64,000 bases of DNA from Candidatus Nomurabacteria bacterium (GTDB lineage: Bacteria; Patescibacteriota; Saccharimonadia; Saccharimonadales; JAGQNJ01). The notes under the pieces are model-generated. The model saw nothing but the letters and a program-made list of their open reading frames with translations. It was not told the DNA's origin and did no database searches. Each line of letters begins with the position of its first letter. The stretch's first letter is position 1. Made by a program: the position numbers and the translations under genes. Below are positions 2,060 through 36,880 of the stretch, one piece after another. Location of the stretch: the NCBI GenBank assembly GCA_023898625.1, contig CP060231.1, positions 481,890 to 545,889 of the forward strand, given 5' to 3'.

Positions 2060-3220
2060 ATGCAACCAGATAATCAAAATAGTCAGCCCATGAACCCTAA
2101 TCCACCTACTCCTCCTTCGCCTCCTACTCCGCCAGTACCGCCAATTCCTCAAGCTCCTACACCTCCCCCTGGTTCCACTACATCAATAGGTTCTGCAAAC
2201 AATTCTGCGCAACCTACAACTCAAAGCCCCATAGCCAGTGGCACGCCTAATACTATGCAATCTGCAAGCACGAACCAATTTCAGACTAATCCAACACCAA
2301 GAAAAAGCCACAAAGGCTTGATTATTGGCTTGATAATCGGAGCCATTTGCATTGTTATTATCCCAATAGTATTATTTTTCTTTTTTACAGTATTAAGCAC
2401 CATGCAGATCTCATCTACTTCTAGTTCATTTATGACTGCCATGACTGCGGGAGATGTTGATAAGGCACTTTCTTACACTGACGGTAGCGCTGAAACTAAA
2501 CAGTTTTTACAAAGTATGGCGCCTGGCATGAAGGCCACAAGCTTTAGTAAGGTTGATAGCACAAATAAATCTGGGAAACATTATTTTTTGTATACACTGC
2601 AAGGAGCAAATAATAAAATGGCTCGAACAGCGCTAGAAAAAGGCGACAAGGGTTGGCAAGTAATAGAGCTTGTTACGGGTAGTAACGTTGCCTTAGTGGG
2701 CGCAAGCAGTAACCAGACAGATACAACAGCTTCATCAGAACCAGCTACACAATCTAGCGGTAGTCAGTGCCTTGTTCAGGCAGATTTTGACAATTGGTAC
2801 AAGGATATGTACGGCAAGACAGCTACAGAGTATGGGTTCCATTTTGAAGATCCAACCAGACCTTATACTGCAAATGTGCATTTTGAACCAGATTCATTAG
2901 ACACTAGTTCGGATAATACTGGTGCGGTGGAAAACATGGCAAATTTAGCTAATGATCCATCGGTTAAGGGGAAATCATTTACCATAAAGCTTTATGGTGG
3001 AGTGGCAACATCACAGGCAGATAAAGATTTCGCGAATAAGCGAGCAGAAGTAGTTAAGAAGGAACTAATCGCCAAAGGAGTTCCTGCAGATAAAATTGCA
3101 ATTGACCCTGCCACCTCTGCAACAGATTACGAAAGCAACCCTAACGAAGTATCTAAAAGAATGAACAGAGTGGTTGTTCTTACCTTTGATCCAACTTGTA
3201 GTGCCTCTGGGCAACGTTGA
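2060..3220 (+). CDS. membrane-anchored protein with Pro-rich N-terminus and OmpA-like C-terminal peptidoglycan-binding domain
   Basis: RBS AGGAG lies upstream. The protein has a PTPPSPPTPP low-complexity head and one TM helix ('GLIIGLIIGAICIVIIPIVLFFFF'). The C-terminal 'NKRAEVVKKELIAKGVPADKIA...RMNRVVVL' is OmpA_C-like. Confidence 0.6.
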   Translation: MQPDNQNSQPMNPNPPTPPSPPTPPVPPIPQAPTPPPGSTTSIGSANNSAQPTTQSPIASGTPNTMQSASTNQFQTNPTPRKSHKGLIIGLIIGAICIVIIPIVLFFFFTVLSTMQISSTSSSFMTAMTAGDVDKALSYTDGSAETKQFLQSMAPGMKATSFSKVDSTNKSGKHYFLYTLQGANNKMARTALEKGDKGWQVIELVTGSNVALVGASSNQTDTTASSEPATQSSGSQCLVQADFDNWYKDMYGKTATEYGFHFEDPTRPYTANVHFEPDSLDTSSDNTGAVENMANLANDPSVKGKSFTIKLYGGVATSQADKDFANKRAEVVKKELIAKGVPADKIAIDPATSATDYESNPNEVSKRMNRVVVLTFDPTCSASGQR

Positions 3221-3723: not shown

Positions 3724-5418
3724 GTGAAAAAACACAAAATAGTAATTGGTATTGGATTATTTGTTGCAACCTTATTGGGTGCGCTAACAATAAGTCGTGG
3801 CAATGCATTTGCAGCCACTAAAACTTGGGATGGTGGTGGTGCAGATGATAAATTTAGCACCGGCACAAACTGGGATGGAGACACGGCACCAGCAAATGGC
3901 GACAGCCTTGCATTCCCTATGGATACAATTTTTAGTGGTGACTGTTCTGCAGATTTAACATTTAATAATGATTTAGACCCCAATTCTATAACTCTTTCAG
4001 GTATCTCGACTAGTGGCGCAAAGCCCAGCGGTTGCTATCATTACATTATCGTGACAGGAAATGATTTTAAATTATCTGGTGATTTTTCACCCCTAGAATC
4101 TTATCAGATAAATTTAGGGGTGGGTATAATTGCAGATGGTGACATTACTGTTAAAAACGCAATATTAAACTCTAATGAACCTGTACTTGATATTGGCAAT
4201 CATACTGTAACTGTTATTGACGGTTATCTTAATAGCGTGTCTGGTACAGGTACTCTGATTTTGGACTCTATTCAAGAAGGATCTGGTGGAGGAGGTTGTT
4301 TGTCGGTTCCTTATTCTCACCCAGTTTCGAAGGATAGCCCAAGCTTTAGTGGTAACATAGTTGTTCAAGGGTATCAGCCTCTAATTGTTACATCTAGGGC
4401 CAACGATATCGCAAACAAGGCATCAAGCATTTCTTTTGTTGGAGGCAATAGTGGTTTATATCTAGTAACTGATAACGGGTCTGATATGACCTTCAGTAAA
4501 GACTTTACAATTAATGGCGGCTCTATTAATGTTATTCAAGCAAAAGGCGAAGATTGTATTACTCCTGCCGCAAATACAACTGTGAATTTGAGTGGTGTGG
4601 TTACGGTGGGAGCATCTACTAAGGTATCTTTAGATCATGCTAATCTAAAATTTAGTGGAGTATTAAATGGTAAAGATAATTTACAAGTACAACCTGGGGG
4701 TAGCGGAGCTGTAACCTATCCAGATGGATCCTCGGTGAATAGTGAGATGAGGGTTGTAACAATATCAAAGGAAGAAGATTGTCCCGATACTTATTATGCT
4801 CTAACAGCGAACAATAAAGTGCTTGTTAATTTTGATTGTAGCGAATCAATACTAGGTACGGTAGATAACCCCTTTCAAGTTAAAGGTATTCTTGGTGGTA
4901 CAGGAAAAATAGGAGGATTTTTAAAGATCCTTGCTGGAGGAGCAATCGCTCCAGGACACAGTCCAGGAACATTAACGGTTGGCAATATTGAATGGGTCGA
5001 AGGCGGAATATACGAGTTTGAAATAGGCAAAGATGGTGGTGACCAAATTATTGCTAACGGAACAGTTACGCTTGGCAACGGAACATTGAAGGTCTTAAGG
5101 TTTGAAGATTATGTTCCAAAAGCAAATGATGTATATACAATTATTGCCAACGACGGATCTGATGCAGTAACTGGGACATTCAAAGACTTACCGGAAGGTG
5201 CAACCTTTACAAATAGCGATGGTGGCGTATATAAGATTAGCTACAAAGGTGGTGATGGCAATGACGTGACCATAACTGTCGTTACTGCACCAAAAGTTCC
5301 AAATACCGGATTCGCAATGCTAAAGAATAATCCATTGCTTACCCTGCTAGCAACTACCGGATCAGCATTAGCAATTGCATTCGTAGCTCGCAAGACTACA
5401 ATCAAAAAACAAGCCTAG
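3724..5418 (+). CDS. secreted beta-strand-repeat surface protein with C-terminal VPNTG sorting signal
   Basis: GTG start with AAAGGAGA upstream, followed by a signal peptide. 'KTWDGGGADDKFSTGTNWDG' is an autotransporter-associated beta-strand-type repeat. The C-terminus 'KVPNTG' + hydrophobic 'LLTLLATTGSALAIAFVA' + 'RKTTIKKQA' is a tripartite sortase signal. Confidence 0.7.
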   Translation: MKKHKIVIGIGLFVATLLGALTISRGNAFAATKTWDGGGADDKFSTGTNWDGDTAPANGDSLAFPMDTIFSGDCSADLTFNNDLDPNSITLSGISTSGAKPSGCYHYIIVTGNDFKLSGDFSPLESYQINLGVGIIADGDITVKNAILNSNEPVLDIGNHTVTVIDGYLNSVSGTGTLILDSIQEGSGGGGCLSVPYSHPVSKDSPSFSGNIVVQGYQPLIVTSRANDIANKASSISFVGGNSGLYLVTDNGSDMTFSKDFTINGGSINVIQAKGEDCITPAANTTVNLSGVVTVGASTKVSLDHANLKFSGVLNGKDNLQVQPGGSGAVTYPDGSSVNSEMRVVTISKEEDCPDTYYALTANNKVLVNFDCSESILGTVDNPFQVKGILGGTGKIGGFLKILAGGAIAPGHSPGTLTVGNIEWVEGGIYEFEIGKDGGDQIIANGTVTLGNGTLKVLRFEDYVPKANDVYTIIANDGSDAVTGTFKDLPEGATFTNSDGGVYKISYKGGDGNDVTITVVTAPKVPNTGFAMLKNNPLLTLLATTGSALAIAFVARKTTIKKQA

Positions 5419-5455: not shown

Positions 5456-6517
5456 ATGCAACAAAAACAGAAGTTACAACTTAGCGCCCTTGAACTGTCT
5501 GATAGAATGCGAACATATCGCACCAGACAGCCTCATAGAGTTATTCCACGAAGCGGAGCTACTCACTTACGACGGCGAATAGGCATGGATGTATGGGAGC
5601 CCTCTAACATGGCGCTGGATACTTCTGAACATAAAGCGTTGCAAAGTACTCGCCCAGACACCACTACAAAACAAGTAAATACTACTGCAAATAGTTTCAA
5701 AAAACCAACACCATTACTTAACGATTCAAAGTTAAATGTTAAAGATAGTAATATCGCTCCCGAAGGTAGTAATCCTAAGGCGTTCGATTTCCAGGAATCC
5801 GCTAGTAAATGGAAGAAGTCTCAACAAAACAAGAAAACACTGTCCTTTAGAAGGCTCAAGTCGATATCACCAAATTATTTCATGTATGGCATGGCGGTAG
5901 TAGTGTTTATGGTTGGCATAACGGTCGCAATCAGATCGTTCATGCTCGACAACAAGATTGCCCAAACAGTTTCTGCTCAAGCTTCAAACTCTGAAGCAAC
6001 TAGTGATGTTGATGAAAAAAAACCGTCTGATGATGATGTTCGTTCGTATTCTGTTGCCCCTGACTTGCCAAGAATAGTGGCAATTCCAAAGCTTGGCATT
6101 AATGGTAGAGTAAGGCAAATGTCTGTCGACAAGAACGGGTCTCTTGAGGCCCCAAGGAGTATCCATGATGCAGGATGGTACAATCAAAGTGCCAAGCCCG
6201 GAACTCCTGGTGGCGCTGTATTGCTTGACGGTCATGTGTCTGGGCCGACACAAAAAGGAGTGTTCTACAAGATAGAAACTCTAAATAAAGGCGATATTGT
6301 AACTATAGAGCGTGGCGACGGCAAGAAGATTGACTACAAAGTTGTCAAAGTAGAAATCAAGAAGGCAACAAATTTAGATATGACCGAAATGATTTTACCT
6401 ATCACTAAAGGTACACATGGGCTCAACCTCATATCTTGCACTGGTAAATTTAATGCTTCTAACAAAACATTTGAAGATAGGGCTTTAGTTTTTACTGAAG
6501 TTAGTCGTATTTACTGA
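5456..6517 (+). CDS. sortase (membrane-anchored, long N-terminal region)
   Basis: One TM helix ('YGMAVVVFMVGITVAI'). The catalytic-domain motifs are His 'LLDGHVSG', Cys 'LNLISCTG' and Arg 'EDRALVF'. It lies directly downstream of a PNTG substrate gene. Confidence 0.75.
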   Translation: MQQKQKLQLSALELSDRMRTYRTRQPHRVIPRSGATHLRRRIGMDVWEPSNMALDTSEHKALQSTRPDTTTKQVNTTANSFKKPTPLLNDSKLNVKDSNIAPEGSNPKAFDFQESASKWKKSQQNKKTLSFRRLKSISPNYFMYGMAVVVFMVGITVAIRSFMLDNKIAQTVSAQASNSEATSDVDEKKPSDDDVRSYSVAPDLPRIVAIPKLGINGRVRQMSVDKNGSLEAPRSIHDAGWYNQSAKPGTPGGAVLLDGHVSGPTQKGVFYKIETLNKGDIVTIERGDGKKIDYKVVKVEIKKATNLDMTEMILPITKGTHGLNLISCTGKFNASNKTFEDRALVFTEVSRIY

Positions 6518-28774: not shown

Positions 28775-31172
28775 ATGAAAGACCTACTAACTAAGCTATC
28801 TATAACAAACAAAGTAAAAATTATAAACTATCTAGTACTATCCCTACTATTCACTATAACTACCCTTATACCATTAACTACCAGCACAGCCAATGCTACA
28901 CCACTACCTACTGATGTGCCTGAGCATGTGTTAAATATTGGTACTTCCGATGGAATATTAAACTCCCCCCAAGACATCACCACTGACTCCTCCGGCAATG
29001 TCTATGTAGTTGATATAGACACCAATCGCATCCAAAAGTTCGACTCCAATGGCACATTTCTTGCCAAGTGGGGCAGTAACGGTTCTGCTGATGGTCAGTT
29101 TAATGATCCTCGCAGCATCACCACCGACTCCTCCGGCAATGTCTATGTCGTAGATACCTACAACTACCGTATCCAGAAGTTCACCTCCACCGGCACCTTC
29201 CTAGCTAAGTGGGGAACATCTGGCTCGGCAGATGGTGAGTTTAGCTATCCTTCCGGCATTACCACCGACGCCTCTGGCAATGTCTATGTGACTGATATGG
29301 GCAACAACCGCATCCAAAAGTTCGACTCTACTGGCACCTTCCTAGCTAAGTGGGGAACATATGGCTCAGCAGATGGTGAGTTCCAATCTCCTTACGGCAT
29401 CACCACCGACTCCTCTGGTAATGTCTATGTGGCCGACTCTGGCAATGACCGCATCCAAAAGTTCAACCTTCCGGTACTTTCTAACCAAATGGGGCAGTAA
29501 TGGCTCGGCCGATGGTCAGTTCAGTAATCCTGACGGCATCACCACCGACTCCTCTGGCAATGTCTATGTAGCTGATTCGAGCAACAACCGCATCCAAAAG
29601 TTCAACTCTTCTGGCACCTTCCTAGCCAAGTGGGGCAGTAATGGCTCGGCCGATGGTCAGTTTAGCTCGCTTCGTGGCATCACCACCGACTCCTCTGGTA
29701 ATGTCTATGTGGCCGACTCTGGCAATGACCGCATCCAAAAGTTTGACTCCTCTGGAGATTTCCTACTTAAATTTGGTATGCCGAGTAGTGAAAACGGTAA
29801 ATTCTACTTCCCATATAGCATCACCACCGACTCCTCCGGCAATGTCTTCGTAGCAGATATTGGCAACAGCCGCATCCAAAAGTTCACCTCCACCGGCACC
29901 TTCCTAGCCAAATGGGGCAGTAATGGTTCAGCTGATGGTCAGTTCAATATACCTACTGACATCACCACCGACTCTTCCGGCAATGTCTATGTAGCAGATA
30001 CTTACAACAACCGCATCCAAAAGTTCGATTCTAACGGTACTTTCCTAACCAAATGGGGCACCTCTGGCTCAGCTGATGGTCAGTTTAGCTCTCCTTCTGG
30101 CATCACCACCGACTCCTCCGGCAATGTCTATGTGACTGATATGGATAACAGCCGCATCCAAAAGTTCAACTCCACCGGCACCTTCCTAGCCAAGTGGGGC
30201 AGTAATGGCTCAGGCGATGGAGAATTTAATGGTCCTTTCGGCATCACCACCGACTCCTCCGGCAATGTCTATGTGACTGATATTGGCAACAGCCGCATCC
30301 AAAAGTTCAACTCCTCCGGCACCTTCCTAGCCAAGTGGGGCAATAATGGCTCAGCCGATGGTGAGTTTAATACACCCCTAGGAATCACCACCGACTCTTC
30401 CGGCAATGTCTACGTGGCCGATACAGGCAACAACCGCATCCAAAAGTTCGATTCTTCTGGCACCTTCCTAGCCAAGTGGGGCAATAATGGCTCAGCCGAT
30501 GGTGAGTTTTACTATCCTTATGGCGTAGCATCTGACACTACAGACAGTATCTATGTAGCTGATTCTGGCAACAACCGCATCCAAAAGTTCGCCTACCCTA
30601 GCGAAGAACCTGAAACCCCAGAAGAACCTTCCTCCGACTCTGATGGTATCCCCGACACCATCGAAAACTCTTCCCCCAATAGTGGTGATGCTAACAATGA
30701 CGGTACACCAGATAGCACTCAAGCTAATGTAGCTAGCTATGTTAACCCAGTAACAAATAGCTATGTAGTACTCCAAACATCTAGTGAATGTAGTATCACT
30801 GCCACTACTACAACTAGTGAAGATAACCTAACTATAAAAGACTCTGGCTATAACTATCCAGTAGGACTAACTAACTTCACTACTGACTGTAACACCCCAG
30901 GCTTTACTGCTACCATAAATCTCTACTACTACAACCTAGATAGTACTAACTACACTCTAAGAAAACATAACCCTAACAATAACTCTTTCCTTACTATAGC
31001 TAACCCTACACTAACTAACCTAACTATAGACAATAAACCAGTAACCAAAGTAACCTACCAAGTTACTGACGGACAACAACTAGACATAGACAACACCACT
31101 AACGGAACCATAGTAGACCCAGTAGGCCTAGCTACACTAGCTGTAGGAAGTCCTAATACGGGGTTGAGATAG
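28775..31172 (+). pseudogene. 12-blade NHL-repeat surface protein, reading frame broken near 29465-29485
   Basis: ORFs 28775..29500 and 29361..31172 are one gene split by a net frameshift. Local sequence is GTTCAACCTTCCGGTACTTTCTAACC, whereas intact repeats read GTTCAACTCTTCTGGCACCTTCCTAGCC. There are 12 copies of '(G/S/D)ITTDSSGNVYV(A/V/T)D..N.RIQKF...G.F..KWG..GS.DG.F'. The C-terminus has a Pro/Glu linker, a beta-rich domain, and ends '...LAVGSPNTGLR*'. Confidence 0.65.
28960..30595 (+). repeat. tandem ~141-bp coding repeats (NHL blades)
   Basis: CATCACCACCGACTCCTC(C/T)GGCAATGTCTATGT recurs at about 141-bp spacing eleven times, plus one diverged copy. Confidence 0.85.
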
Positions 31173-31387
31173 AGCAAGATAAAACCATAAAAAGCTATTC
31201 TCTGAGGACTGTCCTCATAAAGAGGGAAAATATGGTGTAGTATAGTTTTGGGTGGATTCCTGAGAGATTGGGGGTGCGTATTATTTGCGAACAACGTAGG
31301 AATACTATAAGCAACACTATTGACAAAAGTGCAACAAATATGTAATATGACTACAATTAAGTAATGTGGTGGGACTAAGGTTGAGTG

Positions 31388-33133
31388 ATGTTTAAATCTT
31401 TTGTCCAAAAAATTCAGTTTCTTGTATTATTAACTTTATGTAGTTTTGTTTTTGGGTCTATCAGGAGTCCTCATGTACATGCTAGTGTACAGAATCCAAC
31501 TCCCCAAGCACAGGTATCGTTTACTTTTGATGATGGTGCTTCGAGCGTGTATAACAAGGCCGTTCCAACTTTAGCGCAATATGGGTTTACTGGTACAAGT
31601 TATGTTATTACCGGTTGTGTAGGTATGGTGACGGTTCCTAATAATTGTGAAGCAGATAACGATGTGCCGTATATGACATGGAGCCAGGTTGTTTCACTGC
31701 AAAATACTTATGGCTGGGAGGTTGGATCGCACGGGGTTAGTCATCAATTGATGTCTGAGATTTCAGCAAAAAAGATTGATAAAGAATTGTTAGATAGTAA
31801 AAACCAGTTAGTTGCACATGGGCTTAACGTTTCTTCTTTTGCCACACCTTACGGTGATTATAATCAAAAAGTTTTAGCAAATATTGCTAAATATTACTCT
31901 AGCCATCGCCCTTTCCATGATACCGGGTATAATCATTGGCCATATAATGATTATTTACTTCGCGTTCAGCAAGTTCAGGCTGGAGTGAGTGTCGATACTG
32001 TTAAGAGTTATATTGATCAAGCATCGAACGATGGAACGTGGTTAATTTTGGTATTCCATGATATCAGAGATGTGCCAAGCACCAACCCGGAGGATTACCA
32101 ATATAGCACTGCAGATTTATCTGCGATTGCCTCTTACATTAAAAGCAAAAATATTAAAGTGACGAATATTGATAAAGGGATTGTTAAGTCAGACGCAAGC
32201 GATAATTTGGTGGCATCACCTGATACGGGTAAAACTATTGGTGGTGGCTGGACAACCGATACGCCTAAGGCAGTAAAGATTGACGCAACATCTAAGGGTA
32301 GTAATCCTGATCCAGTAAAATCAATAAAGGTTACTGCAAATGCCAAGAAGAGTATACATGTCTTTACTCCATTAGTAACTATTCAGCCAAATGATCAATA
32401 TGTGGTTAAAGGCTATATTAATTTGGATAAGAATTCAAAAGGTGTCGGATTGTATATCGATGAATACGATGCCAGTGGCAATTGGATTAGTGGGCAGTAT
32501 AAGCAAACAATTAATACTTGGTATGACAAAGATATTTCATTTATGTACGTTGCTAGCTCGAGCTCAGTAGCTTGTGCTCGCTTACAGATTATTGTTACAG
32601 CAAATTCTGGTGTTAAAGTTTACATTGATAACGTTAGATGGTTTGTCGCTGTTAGTGGCCCTGCCCCAGATCCGGAATTAGTGAATTTGCTTACCAATGG
32701 TGATTTTGAGCAAGGCTTGACTGGTTGGAGTATTGATGATCCTGCCATATCTTTAGATACTGCAAATAACGGAACATCGCCAACGCCCGTGAATTCCATA
32801 AAACTAACTAACATTGAAGACCGAAGCGTACAACTATTTTCGTCAAAGGTTAACGTAATAAATTCTAAAACCTACAATATCAATGCAGATATGAATGTAC
32901 TGTCTTTGAATGCGAACGGTGAAATAGGTTTTTATATCGATGAATACGATACCAGTGGCAATTGGATTAGCGGACAGTACCTATATACAGTAAGACAAAA
33001 TGGGTTAAATAAAGTTGATTTTTCATATACTCCAACCTCTATAAATGTTGCTTCATCTAGCTTGCAGGTTATCGTGTCTAAAGGTATTGGCACCGTAGCA
33101 TATCTAGATAACGTGAAATTCACCACTGCATGA
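31388..33133 (+). CDS. secreted polysaccharide deacetylase (NodB/CE4 domain) with two duplicated C-terminal carbohydrate-binding-like domains
   Basis: Signal peptide, then the NodB motifs 'SFTFDDGASS' and 'GSHGVSH'. An internal duplication is marked by near-identical 'G(L/F)YIDEYD(A/T)SGNWISGQY' (DNA around 32452-32500 and 32932-32980). Confidence 0.75.
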   Translation: MFKSFVQKIQFLVLLTLCSFVFGSIRSPHVHASVQNPTPQAQVSFTFDDGASSVYNKAVPTLAQYGFTGTSYVITGCVGMVTVPNNCEADNDVPYMTWSQVVSLQNTYGWEVGSHGVSHQLMSEISAKKIDKELLDSKNQLVAHGLNVSSFATPYGDYNQKVLANIAKYYSSHRPFHDTGYNHWPYNDYLLRVQQVQAGVSVDTVKSYIDQASNDGTWLILVFHDIRDVPSTNPEDYQYSTADLSAIASYIKSKNIKVTNIDKGIVKSDASDNLVASPDTGKTIGGGWTTDTPKAVKIDATSKGSNPDPVKSIKVTANAKKSIHVFTPLVTIQPNDQYVVKGYINLDKNSKGVGLYIDEYDASGNWISGQYKQTINTWYDKDISFMYVASSSSVACARLQIIVTANSGVKVYIDNVRWFVAVSGPAPDPELVNLLTNGDFEQGLTGWSIDDPAISLDTANNGTSPTPVNSIKLTNIEDRSVQLFSSKVNVINSKTYNINADMNVLSLNANGEIGFYIDEYDTSGNWISGQYLYTVRQNGLNKVDFSYTPTSINVASSSLQVIVSKGIGTVAYLDNVKFTTA

Positions 33134-33201
33134 GCAGTACAATCACACAATAACATTTACAAACCTGCACTAAAGTAGTAAAATACATTGTGTACAAGCG
33201 T

Positions 33202-33226
33202 GAGGGTCGTTTGGCCCTCTTTTTTG
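33202..33226 (+). terminator. intrinsic terminator after the deacetylase gene
   Basis: GAGGGTC-GTTT-GGCCCTC followed by TTTTTTG. Confidence 0.65.
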
Positions 33227-33273
33227 TTGGCTAAATTACCATCACGTGTCTTAACAAGCAAAGGAGAGACATT

Positions 33274-33441
33274 ATGTACGAAGGTGGTAAAGGCGCTGGT
33301 GCCGTTGTAGCTGGTAGTGTTGTTCTACCAAATACCGGTGGAAGCCAAATACTAACTGCAATTGCAGTAACCAGTATTGCTGTGGGCGTAGTGATTGTTA
33401 TTTCAACAATTGTACGTTTTGCAGTAAATAAGGCTCGATAG
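33274..33441 (+). CDS. 55-aa micro-protein consisting of a bare LPNTG sorting signal
   Basis: Not in the ORF track. AAGGAG (33261-33266) lies 7 nt before the ATG. Translation: MYEGGKGAGAVVAGSVVLPNTGGSQILTAIAVTSIAVGVVIVISTIVRFAVNKAR. An in-frame stop lies 13 codons upstream. A sortase gene starts 45 nt downstream. Confidence 0.55.
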   Translation: MYEGGKGAGAVVAGSVVLPNTGGSQILTAIAVTSIAVGVVIVISTIVRFAVNKAR

Positions 33442-33455
33442 GGCCAGAACGAGGG

Positions 33456-33486
33456 GGGTAGCGTTAATGCGCTACCCTTTAGTTTT
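33456..33486 (+). promoter_or_regulatory. hairpin plus T-rich tract between micro-ORF and sortase (partial terminator or attenuator)
   Basis: GGGTAGCG-TTAATG-CGCTACCC followed by TTTAGTTTT, ending at the sortase ATG. Confidence 0.4.
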
Positions 33487-34104
33487 ATGAAGAATAAGTT
33501 ACGTATTTTAATTGCGATATTTGGACTGTTCTTACTTCTTGTTGGGTCGTGGATACTAATGAAGGGTAGCTACGTGGATGAGGAATATAAGTATATACCT
33601 ACCCAGGCTGAAGCACTCAGACAGGATAGTGGAAGTTCGGTAAATAAGACGCAAGCCACACCCAGTAATTCGCCCAATTCCAATTTGTCTGGCTATCCAG
33701 TCCGTATTGTGTTGCCGGATGTGAATATTGATATTGGGGTCGCAAAAGGCTATTACAATAGCTCTACAAAGAAATGGACTATTAGTCGGGACAAAGCTTA
33801 TTATGCTGTGATGACTAAACGACCAAATACTGAAGGTGGAAACACCTTTATTTATGGACATAATAGATCAAATGTTTTTTCAAGGTTGCTGAAGATAAAA
33901 TCTGGAAGCATAGCTACCATAACAACAGACAATAACAAGAAGTTTGTTTATCAACTAGAACGTTCTTATACCACAAATCCAAACGACAGCGGAATTCTTA
34001 ATTACGAAGGCGACCCCATACTAACCCTACAAACCTGCTCTGGAGCAAATTTTCAACATCGAACATTATATATTTTTAAACTTATTAAGGTAAAAAATGC
34101 TTAA
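33487..34104 (+). CDS. sortase (compact, single N-terminal TM)
   Basis: TM helix 'ILIAIFGLFLLLVGSWIL'. The catalytic motifs are His 'FIYGHNRSN', Cys 'PILTLQTCSG' and Arg 'QHRTLYIF'. Confidence 0.8.
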   Translation: MKNKLRILIAIFGLFLLLVGSWILMKGSYVDEEYKYIPTQAEALRQDSGSSVNKTQATPSNSPNSNLSGYPVRIVLPDVNIDIGVAKGYYNSSTKKWTISRDKAYYAVMTKRPNTEGGNTFIYGHNRSNVFSRLLKIKSGSIATITTDNNKKFVYQLERSYTTNPNDSGILNYEGDPILTLQTCSGANFQHRTLYIFKLIKVKNA

Positions 34105-35356
34105 AGATGTATTATTTTACACGTTTGCTTTCATAGCAATTCTGAATACAATTCATTTTGGGTTATATATAGCTGGTGCAAATTTTTACGATATTCGTGA
34201 GGCGTTACGAAAGAAAAAGCCACATAAAAAGCAAAGAGGATTAAGGCCATTACTAACCTTAGTGATTCCAGCTCATAATGAGGAGGCAGGAATAGTAAGG
34301 ACTCTAGAATCAGTTCGAAAAAATACGTACCGTAAGTTACAAATTTTGGTTGTCGACGATGCGTCTACCGACAATACACGTGGCTTGGTTTGGCGATACA
34401 TAAATGAACACCCACATATGAATATTCAGCTAGTCTGTATGAAAAAAAATGTCGGTAAGGGAGAGGCTATGAATTATGCCTTACGACATTTTGCGAAAGG
34501 TGATTTATTAATGACTCTCGATGCTGATTCTTTGTTGGCTCGCCGGTCAATTAATAATGCCGTTAAGCATTTTGATGATCCAAACATTGTCGGTTTGGCT
34601 GCTAATGTCAGGGTGCTTGATGACGGAAGTGTGTTGAGTTTAATACAAAAATTTGAACATATGATTGGTTATCGTTCAAAGAAGTTTTATACATTAACCA
34701 ATAGTGAATTTATTATAGGTGGAGTGGCGTCAACTTATCGTATGAATGTAATTCGAGAATCAGGATATTATGATACAGATACACAAACCGAGGATATAGG
34801 TTTAAGTATGAAGTTAACATCAAAAGGAAATACTCAACAGAAAATTATCTATGGGTCTGACGTATTGGCATTAACTGAGGGCGTACAAAGCTACAAAGCT
34901 CTTTTTAAACAGCGTTATCGTTGGAAACTCGGCATGTTACAGAATCTATTAAAATATAAATCTATGGTTGGAAATCCTAGCTCAATGTATAGTAAAACAT
35001 TAACATATTATAGGCTCCCTATGGCATTCACTAGCGAGATTATTTTATTAGTAGAACCTATTCTGTTAATTTATGTAATATATTTGAGCATTATTAATAA
35101 AAATCCATATGCATTGGTCGGAGCATATTTAACAATAACTTTATATATACTGTGGAGCCTCTGGCCTGATGAATATTTGTTGCGTAAAAGCAAGATTCGA
35201 TTGAGTCTATATGCGCCATTTATGTATTTTATGTTTTATGTAATGAATGCCGTTCAGTTGGTTGCAGTTTTGCGATGTATTAAGAATTATAAAAAAGTGT
35301 TGAGAAAAGTTAAAACTGGTGGGGCATGGACATCGCCGGCTAGAGCAACAAATTAG
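34097..35356 (+). CDS. processive family-2 glycosyltransferase (PgaC/IcaA/NodC/cellulose-synthase-like)
   Basis: Overlaps the sortase stop by 8 nt. Motifs are 'VIPAHNEE', 'VVDDASTDNT', 'TLDADS', 'TEDIGLS' and 'QRYRWKLG' (QxxRW). One N-terminal and three or more C-terminal TM helices. Confidence 0.8.
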   Translation: MLKDVLFYTFAFIAILNTIHFGLYIAGANFYDIREALRKKKPHKKQRGLRPLLTLVIPAHNEEAGIVRTLESVRKNTYRKLQILVVDDASTDNTRGLVWRYINEHPHMNIQLVCMKKNVGKGEAMNYALRHFAKGDLLMTLDADSLLARRSINNAVKHFDDPNIVGLAANVRVLDDGSVLSLIQKFEHMIGYRSKKFYTLTNSEFIIGGVASTYRMNVIRESGYYDTDTQTEDIGLSMKLTSKGNTQQKIIYGSDVLALTEGVQSYKALFKQRYRWKLGMLQNLLKYKSMVGNPSSMYSKTLTYYRLPMAFTSEIILLVEPILLIYVIYLSIINKNPYALVGAYLTITLYILWSLWPDEYLLRKSKIRLSLYAPFMYFMFYVMNAVQLVAVLRCIKNYKKVLRKVKTGGAWTSPARATN

Positions 35357-35359
35357 TTA

Positions 35360-36880
35360 TTAAAATTCATGCATGACAGATATCTTAGCGCCTAATGAAT
35401 TAAATCGATCAGCTAGATCTTCATACCCGCGATTAATCGTATAGACATTACGCAACATACTTACTCCACTGCCAGCGAGCATTCCAATCAGAATAATGAC
35501 TGCTGGTCGGATACCGCTAGGTGCTACCATGTCTGCTGGCTTGAATCGTGTTGGGCCATCTACGTACAGGCGATGTGGATCGGCAAGCTCCAATTTTACT
35601 CCAATTTTTTTCATTTCCGTGAACATTAATGCCCTATCTTCATACACCCAATCATGAATCAATGTTCTGCCATGCGCAACAGCAACTATTGGTACAAAGT
35701 AGGGTAGATGGTCGATGTTGAGGCCGGGGAACGGTCTGCCATAAATTTTTTCAGCTGGAGCAATCAATTTGCCATTATGTTTATGAATTGTAATATCGAT
35801 TAAATCAGTCTGGTTGTTGTTTGCCTTATATATCTTAGATTTATCAAACTTGAGACCCATTTTTTCTAGCTTAAGAAGCTCTAGTTCGAGAAAATCAATC
35901 GGTACTCGTTTTATGGTGATTGACGAATTTGTAACAATTGAAGCCGTAATAAACGTCATTGCCTCAACAGGGTCTTCACTTGGATAATAGGTGACGTTTT
36001 TCTTGATATTTTTGATGCCACGAATTCTTAGAGTGCTTGTTCCTATGCCGTCTATTTTTACGCCCAAACGTCTCAAGAAAAAGCAGATATCTTGAACCAT
36101 ATAATTGGCGCTGGCCATTTTTATGATAGTTTCACCATCAAAACGAGAGGCTGCCATGAGGATGTTTTCTGTTGTGGTATCGCCAGATTCATACAATACT
36201 ATTGGCTCTGTGGGTTGTTTTTTCTGCACAGTCACTTTATATACACCTGTCTTTGTGTCAACAGATACCCCAAACTCTTCAAGAGCGTATAAGTGGGGTA
36301 GAACAGTACGTTTGCCTAGCTCACAACCCCCTGCGTAAGGAATATCAAACCTCGTCATTAAATGCATTAATGGCCCCATTAACATAATTACGCTTCTGGT
36401 GCGTCGGGCCGCAGATTTATCAATATTGTCTATGTTAAGTTTTTCTGGAGGTTTGATCTCGATATCATTGCCAATCCAGCGCACAGCTACACCAATACTT
36501 CGTAAAACCTCTATAATTCTGTTAACTTCTTCAATGTGTGGCGCACTTTTAATGCGAGTCGTACCTTTGTTTAATAAGCTTGCACAAAGTAGGGCTACTG
36601 TAGCATTCTTAGAGCTTTTGACTGAAATTTCTCCATGTAGCTCATGACCACCCTCAACTCTTAAATTGATTGCACCACTTGAAATGTTTATCAAAGGCTT
36701 GTTAAGTACATCACTAATACGTGCCAAATAATCTAGGCTTAAGTTTTGGCCACCATGCTCAATGCGATTAACGGCAGATTGGCTAGTTTTTAGCTGTTTA
36801 GCAAACTCCGCTTGGGTTAAGCCTCGTTCTTGCCTTATTTGATAAATAAGCTTGCCGATTTTTTCGTTATTCGATTGCAT
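35360..36880 (-). CDS. murA: UDP-N-acetylglucosamine 1-carboxyvinyltransferase with N-terminal XRE-type HTH domain
   Basis: Residues 1-65, 'IRQERGLTQAEFAKQLKTSQSAVNRIEHG', form an HTH_3 domain. The remainder is MurA: 'SSKNATVALLCASLL' and the catalytic-loop Cys in 'YAGGCELGKRTV'. 506 aa against roughly 420 for a typical MurA. Confidence 0.85.
   Translation of the reverse strand: MQSNNEKIGKLIYQIRQERGLTQAEFAKQLKTSQSAVNRIEHGGQNLSLDYLARISDVLNKPLINISSGAINLRVEGGHELHGEISVKSSKNATVALLCASLLNKGTTRIKSAPHIEEVNRIIEVLRSIGVAVRWIGNDIEIKPPEKLNIDNIDKSAARRTRSVIMLMGPLMHLMTRFDIPYAGGCELGKRTVLPHLYALEEFGVSVDTKTGVYKVTVQKKQPTEPIVLYESGDTTTENILMAASRFDGETIIKMASANYMVQDICFFLRRLGVKIDGIGTSTLRIRGIKNIKKNVTYYPSEDPVEAMTFITASIVTNSSITIKRVPIDFLELELLKLEKMGLKFDKSKIYKANNNQTDLIDITIHKHNGKLIAPAEKIYGRPFPGLNIDHLPYFVPIVAVAHGRTLIHDWVYEDRALMFTEMKKIGVKLELADPHRLYVDGPTRFKPADMVAPSGIRPAVIILIGMLAGSGVSMLRNVYTINRGYEDLADRFNSLGAKISVMHEF

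Follow-up and report, generated by a model that had tools for sequence, protein, structure and literature searches.

A conserved Saccharibacteria gene module combines a sortase and a bare LPNTG micro-protein with a predicted synthase-type glycosyltransferase and a secreted polysaccharide deacetylase

In the PEP-CTERM/EpsH system of Gram-negative bacteria, a C-terminal sorting signal and its processing enzyme are genomically tied to exopolysaccharide (EPS) biosynthesis (PMC1569441). The XrtG system of Firmicutes, itself uncharacterised, comprises a Firmicu-CTERM protein, XrtG and two glycosyltransferases (PMC12854382). Among the sortases, SrtD with its LPNTA-type targets and the class GN 'marine' sortase adjoin one cognate target. 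In Actinomyces oris, the glycosylated surface protein GspA, which is LCP-dependent, is reportedly anchored by SrtA. Attachment to host cells is the way of life of Saccharibacteria and other bacteria of the candidate phyla radiation (CPR), the envelope assembly of which is hardly understood. Here, we analyzed a 64,000-nucleotide (nt) stretch of contig CP060231.1 of a Candidatus Nomurabacteria bacterium (positions 481,890 to 545,889, hereafter the window), in which four open reading frames (ORFs) follow each other on the + strand between positions 31385 and 35356. They encode a deacetylase of carbohydrate esterase family 4 (CE4), a micro-protein with an LPNTG motif, a sortase, and a glycosyltransferase of family 2 (GT2). 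At a rough probability of 0.55, we favour the reading that these genes form a conserved Saccharibacteria envelope module, in which a dedicated sortase, its co-encoded mini-substrate, a synthase-type GT2 and an extracellular CE4 enzyme cooperate.

The locus resembles the icaADBC and pgaABCD operons in having a membrane GT2 with the D, DxD, ED and QxxRW motifs, an extracellular CE4 protein and a small membrane protein beside the synthase. It differs from them in that IcaD, PgaD, IcaC and PgaA are absent and the small protein is a predicted sortase substrate, and in that the sortase appears to be translationally coupled to the synthase and the CE4 protein carries CBM_4_9 domains. In Lactobacillus plantarum the XrtG genes have the same order as here, namely sorting-signal protein, sorting enzyme and GT2 (PMC12854382), but in our locus the enzyme is a sortase with the cysteine transpeptidase fold rather than a polytopic exosortase, the signal is LPNTG and the cutoff of the family TIGR03111 was missed. 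The PEP-CTERM/EpsH system is more distant, with an enzyme of an unrelated family, many targets that nearly all have signal peptides, and EPS loci of the Wzx/Wzy type. The dedicated pairs share the adjacency of sortase and single target with the locus, whereas here the target lacks a passenger domain and a signal peptide, and expression of the sortase is tied to that of a GT2. As in A. oris, sortase anchoring could be tied to a glycopolymer; there, however, the polymer sits on an LPXTG protein, GspA, that is a normal secreted protein, the glycan is lipid-linked and needs an LCP enzyme, and no gene fusion or overlap is involved. The preprint 'Novel Pilus System in CPR', which describes Pam pili, was considered as a match and found to be unrelated. 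No description of the module was found in full-text literature searches, so the claim of the original prediction, made from the letters of the window, that the arrangement is undescribed stands for the arrangement itself. The concept, however, has a precedent in exosortase systems, where sorting enzyme, target and EPS genes are likewise linked (PMC1569441, PMC12854382). What is new is that a dedicated sortase/substrate pair is tied, through joint expression, to an EPS core of the synthase type.

Gene order was surveyed in 80 loci of species-representative genomes that were fetched via GT2 alignment, with GT2 identities of 43-84%. Except for a few records with other labels, the sampled loci are from Saccharibacteria, and the homologues of the GT2 (1302 at E ≤ 1e-10) carry the source labels Candidatus Saccharibacteria or Saccharimonadales, which marks the window as part of a Saccharibacteria genome. 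A sortase gene lies immediately 5' of the GT2 gene in 69 of the 77 GT2 copies with enough upstream sequence, and in 66 of 67 loci the two genes meet at -11 to +10 nt, counted from sortase stop to GT2 ATG. The micro-ORF is present in all 68 sortase-bearing loci with at least 400 nt of upstream sequence, and a CE4 homologue is found upstream of it in 55 of 58 loci, 30 times on the same strand and 25 times on the opposite one, at a median distance of 244 nt. On the other hand, the flanks vary by clade, consisting of murA-like/glyA/murB, RNase T/aldolase/FBPase, ATPase or glycoside hydrolase family 10 (GH10) genes. Since the order, the overlap and the CE4 adjacency are kept while the flanks change, the core is held together by selection and not by inertia. 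The gene order predicted for the window is thereby seen to be conserved over deep divergence, and the coordinates of the four ORFs were likewise borne out, with either GTG or ATG as the start of the CE4 gene (Table 1). We conclude that the four-gene arrangement goes beyond a chance neighbourhood and that the module is widespread, conserved and phylum-wide in Saccharibacteria. In a neighbour-joining tree, the few GT2 copies that lack a sortase fall into small derived clades, and a comparison of contig accession prefixes indicated that most of these copies share an assembly with a canonical one.

Genomes of Saccharibacteria are compact, and the four genes could be mere neighbours, that is, a housekeeping sortase next to an unrelated glycosyltransferase, with the CE4 and GH10 proteins degrading plant polymers. 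GH10, CE4 and CBM_4_9 together make a classic xylan-degrading set, and the separate transcription of the CE4 gene would also fit. However, order and overlap persist at GT2 identities of 43-84% amid changing flanks, the CE4 gene stays adjacent despite its strand flips, the window holds a second sortase/substrate pair, and LPNTG has degenerated in the one locus that has a micro-ORF but no sortase. Such a coincidence is therefore, in our view, very improbable.

The micro-protein, in effect, is a sorting signal preceded by an N-tail of 17 residues, with neither a signal peptide nor a passenger domain. All three parts of a sortase signal are there: the LPNTG motif, a hydrophobic span (residues 22-54, forming a single C-terminal transmembrane (TM) helix) and a basic tail. 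The only Pfam match was to Gram_pos_anchor, the LPXTG anchor, with 17.1 bits, which is below the cutoff. Across 70 loci the family members are 51-79 amino acids (aa) long (median 58), 64 start with MY and 60 contain LPNTG. The 11-38 residues (median 18) in front of the motif consist of G (26%), A (20%), V (16%) and T (10%) in particular, and the conserved columns are M1, Y2, L18, P19, T21, G22, the mid-TM G38, R48 and A51. N-tails have at most two charged residues, with none at all in 27 of 68, and a hydrophobic core of signal-peptide length was absent from all N-tails examined. A profile search retrieved at least 351 clusters (90% identity) of relatives of 55-62 aa, named at the source only as 'hypothetical' or 'LPXTG cell wall anchor domain-containing protein'. 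An extended ORF or a frameshift by which a signal peptide would be gained was sought but not found, as no start codon lies between the upstream stop and position 33274 and the homologues begin at the same MY. Judging from this conservation and from the Shine-Dalgarno-like AAGGAG in front of it, the micro-ORF is a genuine gene for a sorting signal almost without cargo. Pilus-like polymerisation of the micro-peptide was considered and rejected, as a lysine is present in the N-segment in only 34 of 70 loci and a folded pilin domain is lacking.

The region downstream of the micro-ORF contains a strong stem-loop followed by a U-rich tract, and none of 200 shuffled sequences was as stable. In the relatives, the 70 nt after the micro-ORF stop have a mean minimum free energy of -25.4 kcal/mol, compared with -13.9 kcal/mol in random windows of the same loci. 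Structures of -18 kcal/mol or below were predicted in 57 of 68 loci, and 41 of 68 also have a T-rich octamer. The stem-loop looks like a terminator or attenuator placed between the micro-ORF and the sortase gene, and its conservation suggests an excess of the micro-protein over the sortase and the GT2, as would be expected for a substrate that is consumed. Another terminator-like hairpin follows the CE4 gene. Judging from this hairpin and the opposite orientation in 25 of 55 relatives, the CE4 gene is a transcription unit of its own. The cluster is consequently not one plain operon, given the CE4 hairpin and strand flips and the hairpin after the micro-ORF. A promoter scan of the sequence gave 20 matches against 20.8 expected from shuffles, and no promoter was assigned. 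The small ORF with a strong hairpin some 5-10 nt further on, abutting the next start codon and conserved as such, is also what a regulatory leader peptide would look like, in which translation or membrane insertion sets the read-through of the hairpin and thereby the expression of sortase and GT2. A full and invariant sorting signal is, however, not normal for leader peptides, and the state of the motif follows the presence or absence of the sortase; thus a purely regulatory role seems remote to us.

The sortase was recognised by Pfam PF04203 with 64 bits (cutoff 26.6), and the triad H125, C184 (in TLQTC) and R192 is invariant in an alignment of 28 sequences. Its AlphaFold2 (AF2) model, with a pLDDT of 82.6, has the sortase fold, and in Foldseek it matched classes C, A, E and D of the sortases similarly well (3e-10 to 5e-9). 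By sequence, the nearest sortase is SrtD of Bacillus anthracis (2ln7), and 4d70 is another of its class D relatives. All NCBIfam scores stayed below cutoff, the best being SrtD (41 vs 140), followed by class D (34 vs 165) and class C (17 vs 160). A second sortase, with a long N-terminal extension, is encoded in the window directly after a protein without Pfam match that ends in VPNTG, a TM segment and KKQA. The idea that the GT2-linked sortase is the only one of the organism was therefore rejected. Its own adjacent substrate and the second sortase/substrate pair make the GT2-linked sortase look dedicated. This bears on a caveat of the original prediction, namely that the sortase might have substrates elsewhere: it has one next to it, and the other substrate in the window is paired with another sortase.

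The GT2 is composed of an N-terminal TM helix, a GT-A domain with D88, D142xD144, T231-E-D and Q272RYRW, and C-terminal TM helices, the last part with the family motifs WPDEH and W[VI]SPxR (WxSPxR). The full motif set that had been named for it (DDAS, DAD, TED, QRYRW) is present and invariant in a 16-sequence alignment, and in 86 of 86 family members, those without a sortase among them, the catalytic D, DxD, TED and QR[YF]RW are intact. Among NCBIfam models the best match was PgaC_IcaA (TIGR03937), aligned from end to end (residues 24-416 of 419) with 149.8 bits and an E-value of 1e-43; the second best was TIGR03111, the XrtG-associated glycosyltransferase, with 96.2 bits against a cutoff of 364. 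Classification as a PgaC/IcaA-type enzyme is in this sense upheld by the ranking of models, but not by the equivalog cutoff of 422.3 bits. The AF2 model has a pLDDT of 69 overall, with values above 90 in the GT domain and 50-70 in the TM part. Foldseek placed PcManGT on top (3e-19), together with BcsA, hyaluronan synthases (TMq 0.64-0.70) and Chs1. The alignment and the predicted fold thus agree with an IcaA/PgaC-type membrane GT2, and a membrane-embedded, synthase-type enzyme is supported by the model. From the invariant triad, the intact motifs and the synthase fold, both sortase and GT2 are predicted to be catalytically competent. The 8-nt overlap between the two genes is real, and the tight junction, kept in nearly all loci as described above, implies that their translation is coupled.

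The CE4 protein has an N-terminal hydrophobic segment that is consistent with a signal peptide, and the TFDDG and HGVSH motifs that had been noted were found at residues 47 and 116, in addition to LVFHD, so that the CE4 domain has its metal and catalytic motifs. The two duplicated carbohydrate-binding-like domains were also confirmed: the two C-terminal domains of about 140 aa each are duplicates with 39% mutual identity (E 5e-31), and the second one scores above the Pfam cutoff for CBM_4_9 (36.7 vs 25.9 bits). The best NCBIfam matches were HfsH (52.7 bits, cutoff 400), IcaB (32.6, cutoff 248) and PgaB (30.7, cutoff 322), all of them below cutoff. As both the GT2 and the CE4 protein remain below their equivalog cutoffs, the polymer is assigned tentatively, with a beta-glycan of N-acetylhexosamine (HexNAc) as our best guess. 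GH10 genes lie directly beside the module in about 15 loci, in varying positions (Table 1). GH10 could be a partner that trims the polymer, or could form a set for xylan use with the CE4-CBM protein. In view of the GH10 neighbours and CBM_4_9, a different beta-glycan, other than poly-N-acetylglucosamine (PNAG), is possible.

The original prediction had placed the micro-protein in the position of IcaD. A search of the micro-ORF against NCBIfam gave no family at E ≤ 0.01, IcaD and PgaD included, and only indirect evidence, the small TM ORF beside sortase-less GT2 paralogues, speaks for this part of the claim. In three sortase-less tandem GT2 paralogues, a single-TM ORF of 63 aa without LPXTG overlaps the GT2 start. 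Against the micro-protein profile, these ORFs match over the TM/tail half only, with 8-16 bits, while another sorting signal of the window scores 3.6 bits. In one further locus (L021), the micro-ORF stands next to the GT2 gene without a sortase gene and its motif reads LPNAS, whereas LPNTG is retained in the presence of the sortase, which fits a selection on the motif that is imposed by the sortase. The micro-protein may chiefly be a small subunit of the synthase, as IcaD or PgaD are, with cleavage serving to mature, regulate or turn over the protein and the N-peptide being a by-product. The conserved TM/tail positions G38, R48, A51 and K exceed the needs of a generic anchor, and the retention of the small ORFs in the three paralogues and of the micro-ORF in L021 would also be explained. 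However, no IcaD or PgaD similarity was found, M1-Y2 and LPNTG are the most conserved features, the excess suggested by the hairpin suits a consumed substrate more than a 1:1 subunit, and the paralogue matches are weak, TM segments matching easily. We consider such a role to be unlikely on balance, though it deserves to be kept in mind.

Hints of a physical partnership between sortase and GT2 also come from outside the canonical loci. The gene of the distant sortase P0194 (36% identity) is flanked on one side by that of a 167-aa LPNTG protein with a G8 linker and a hydrophobic leader at its N-terminus, and on the other by that of a 280-aa membrane protein, which overlaps the sortase stop. The membrane protein has no GT2 catalytic core; it could be aligned with the WPDEH-containing C-terminal part of the GT2 family (hhalign probability 70%, E 3.9e-5) and looks like a remnant of a GT2 retained as a partner of the sortase. 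The contig of P0192 has the same gene layout. In L089, a sortase gene overlaps by 4 nt with that of a 392-aa GT2 homologue (26% identity, E 1e-30), in which DxD has changed to EAS and QRYRW is lost, so that it is probably inactive; there, no micro-ORF was found in the 480 nt upstream. More distant sortases have other gene contexts. These few cases suggest that the membrane body of the GT2 matters to the sortase even without GT2 catalysis.

The same cases bear on a further possibility, in which the sortase joins peptide and polysaccharide covalently. The nucleophile would be a glucosamine amine produced by the CE4 enzyme, or the polymer would be built on the micro-protein (e.g., on Tyr2) and then sorted to the wall. 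The product would be a peptide-glycan conjugate in which the synthase-made, deacetylated polymer is attached via the mini-LPNTG, either by a peptide-to-glucosamine amide or as a peptide-primed polymer on peptidoglycan, and the sortase would dock on the membrane domain of the GT2. The four functions persist side by side, the CE4 enzyme would supply the amines that a sortase needs, and the micro-protein has no passenger, a conserved N-terminal MY and a thin uncharged linker, all of which would suit a conjugate. Sortase A accepts aminosugars in vitro, and to our knowledge synthase-dependent polymers have no lipid carrier for a wall attachment of the LCP type. Nevertheless, the proposal is purely inferential, a CE4 enzyme is standard in ica and pga systems too, where there is no sortase, and the sortase pairing persists with apparently inactive GT2-like partners. 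Moreover, we know of no GT2 synthase that uses a protein primer. Covalent conjugation is for these reasons a rather doubtful proposition.

In the favoured envelope module, the GT2 would polymerise a UDP-sugar, most likely HexNAc, in a presumably processive manner and extrude a beta-glycan through its own membrane channel. The secreted CE4 enzyme, held to the glycan by its CBM_4_9 domains, would deacetylate it. The 55-aa protein would be produced in excess from its own transcript, ended or attenuated at the hairpin, and would insert without a signal peptide in the N-out/C-in orientation, with which its short and almost uncharged N-tail is compatible. The sortase, kept in a fixed ratio with the GT2 through translational coupling and possibly in a physical complex with it, would cleave LPNT|G and transfer a G/A/V/T-rich peptide of about 20 residues to an amine of the envelope, by default that of a peptidoglycan precursor. 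The TM stub that is left may remain beside the synthase and serve it as a small partner. Peptide and polymer would then be parts of one surface structure, whatever the chemistry that might join peptide, wall and polymer.

Several observations weigh against this reading. The GH10 neighbours and CBM_4_9 could mean that the substrate of the CE4 protein is xylan or glucan of foreign origin. Both GT2 and CE4 protein fail the PgaC/IcaA and IcaB/PgaB equivalog cutoffs, and the locus is not an ica/pga member; thus, from the claim of an ica/pga-like core there remains the combination of a synthase-type GT2 with a CE4 protein in 55 of 58 loci, while every ica/pga equivalog test failed. PcManGT, the top structural match, is not known to be a processive synthase. 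The sortase-less paralogues with a TM ORF, and the sortases found with eroded or truncated GT2-like partners, indicate that the link may be structural and not centred on a polymer. Finally, in the annotation table of the Southlakia Tn-seq strain, a cultivated oral organism, the module is apparently absent; two sortases are annotated in this strain, neither of which adjoins a GT2. Its EPS genes SEML1_0081-0083, which the Tn-seq study had flagged, were examined as a candidate module and ruled out as a Wzx/Wzy-type cluster.

The module pairs the best-understood surface-attachment enzyme of Gram-positive bacteria with a synthase-type glycan machine and a bare sorting-signal substrate, and hints that a surface polymer may be made or tethered in a novel manner. 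A joining or co-assembly of peptide and polymer, if it takes place, would be a new principle for anchoring synthase-made polysaccharides. The micro-proteins would then also extend the minimal sortase substrates by a new natural class, which could interest protein engineers who work with sortases, and the module would offer a concrete target for studies of epibiont adhesion. Should the covalent conjugate exist, it would represent a third route of wall attachment for polysaccharides in monoderm-type envelopes, beside LCP ligases and lipid anchors.

Table 1. Coordinates of the module, its signals and related or neighbouring features. Positions are those of the window or, where a locus is named, of that sampled locus.
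Feature	Sequence	Coordinates	Strand	Details
Secreted CE4 polysaccharide deacetylase	window	31385 (GTG) or 31388 (ATG)..33133	+	582 aa; Polysacc_deac_1 1.1e-19
Terminator-like hairpin and T run after CE4	window	33202..33229 (stem 33202-33219)	+	7-pair stem, 5 GC, then TTTTTTGTTG
Shine-Dalgarno-like AAGGAG	window	33261..33266	+	8 nt 5' of micro-ORF ATG
Micro-protein	window	33274..33441	+	55 aa; MYEGGKGAGAVVAGSVV-LPNTG-GS, one TM helix, RFAVNKAR
Strong stem-loop and U-rich tract	window	33446..33486	+	-22.3 kcal/mol, z -4.0; ends at sortase ATG
Membrane-anchored sortase	window	33487..34104	+	205 aa; N-terminal TM helix; Pfam Sortase 1.3e-17
Sortase stop/GT2 start overlap	window	34097..34104	+	8 nt (ATGCTTAA)
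Membrane-embedded PgaC/IcaA-like GT2	window	34097..35356	+	419 aa; Glycos_transf_2 1e-27
63-aa TM ORF	L046	5813..6004		
63-aa TM ORF	L057	5810..6004		
63-aa TM ORF	L052	1383..1574		
GH10-flanked loci	L003, L015, L020, L022, L026, L027, L034, L041, L046, L052, L053, L057, L058, L062, L064			
LPNTG protein, sortase P0194 and 280-aa membrane protein	L086	4485..6433		
Sortase and GT2 homologue	L089	482..2175		
GT2, inverted and split	L087	5607..7081	-	two ORFs (154 + 247 aa)
OmpA-family domain protein	window	2060..3220	+	386 aa
VPNTG protein	window	3724..5418	+	564 aa
Second sortase	window	5456..6517	+	353 aa
NHL-repeat surface protein	window	28775..29500 and 29361..31172	+	two overlapping ORFs
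MurA-like protein	window	35360..36880	-	EPSP_synthase fold

Some further features of the surroundings were recorded. In one sampled locus (L087), the GT2 gene beside the micro-ORF and the sortase gene is inverted and split, and the motif of the micro-protein is LPFTG; this locus looks rearranged or decaying. The MurA-like protein encoded next to the GT2 gene in the window carries an N-terminal helix-turn-helix (HTH) domain of the XRE type. In 46 loci its gene adjoins the module along with glyA and murB, and such a fusion of an HTH domain with a cell-wall-precursor enzyme is unusual. Just 5' of the second sortase/substrate pair of the window, a protein with a weak OmpA-family (peptidoglycan-binding) domain is encoded. 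The NHL-repeat surface protein upstream of the CE4 gene is split into its two ORFs by a frameshift or by a problem in the assembly of repeats. It has a 'choice-of-anchor U' domain and ends in ...GSPNTGLR* without a TM segment, which looks like a truncated or decayed sorting signal.

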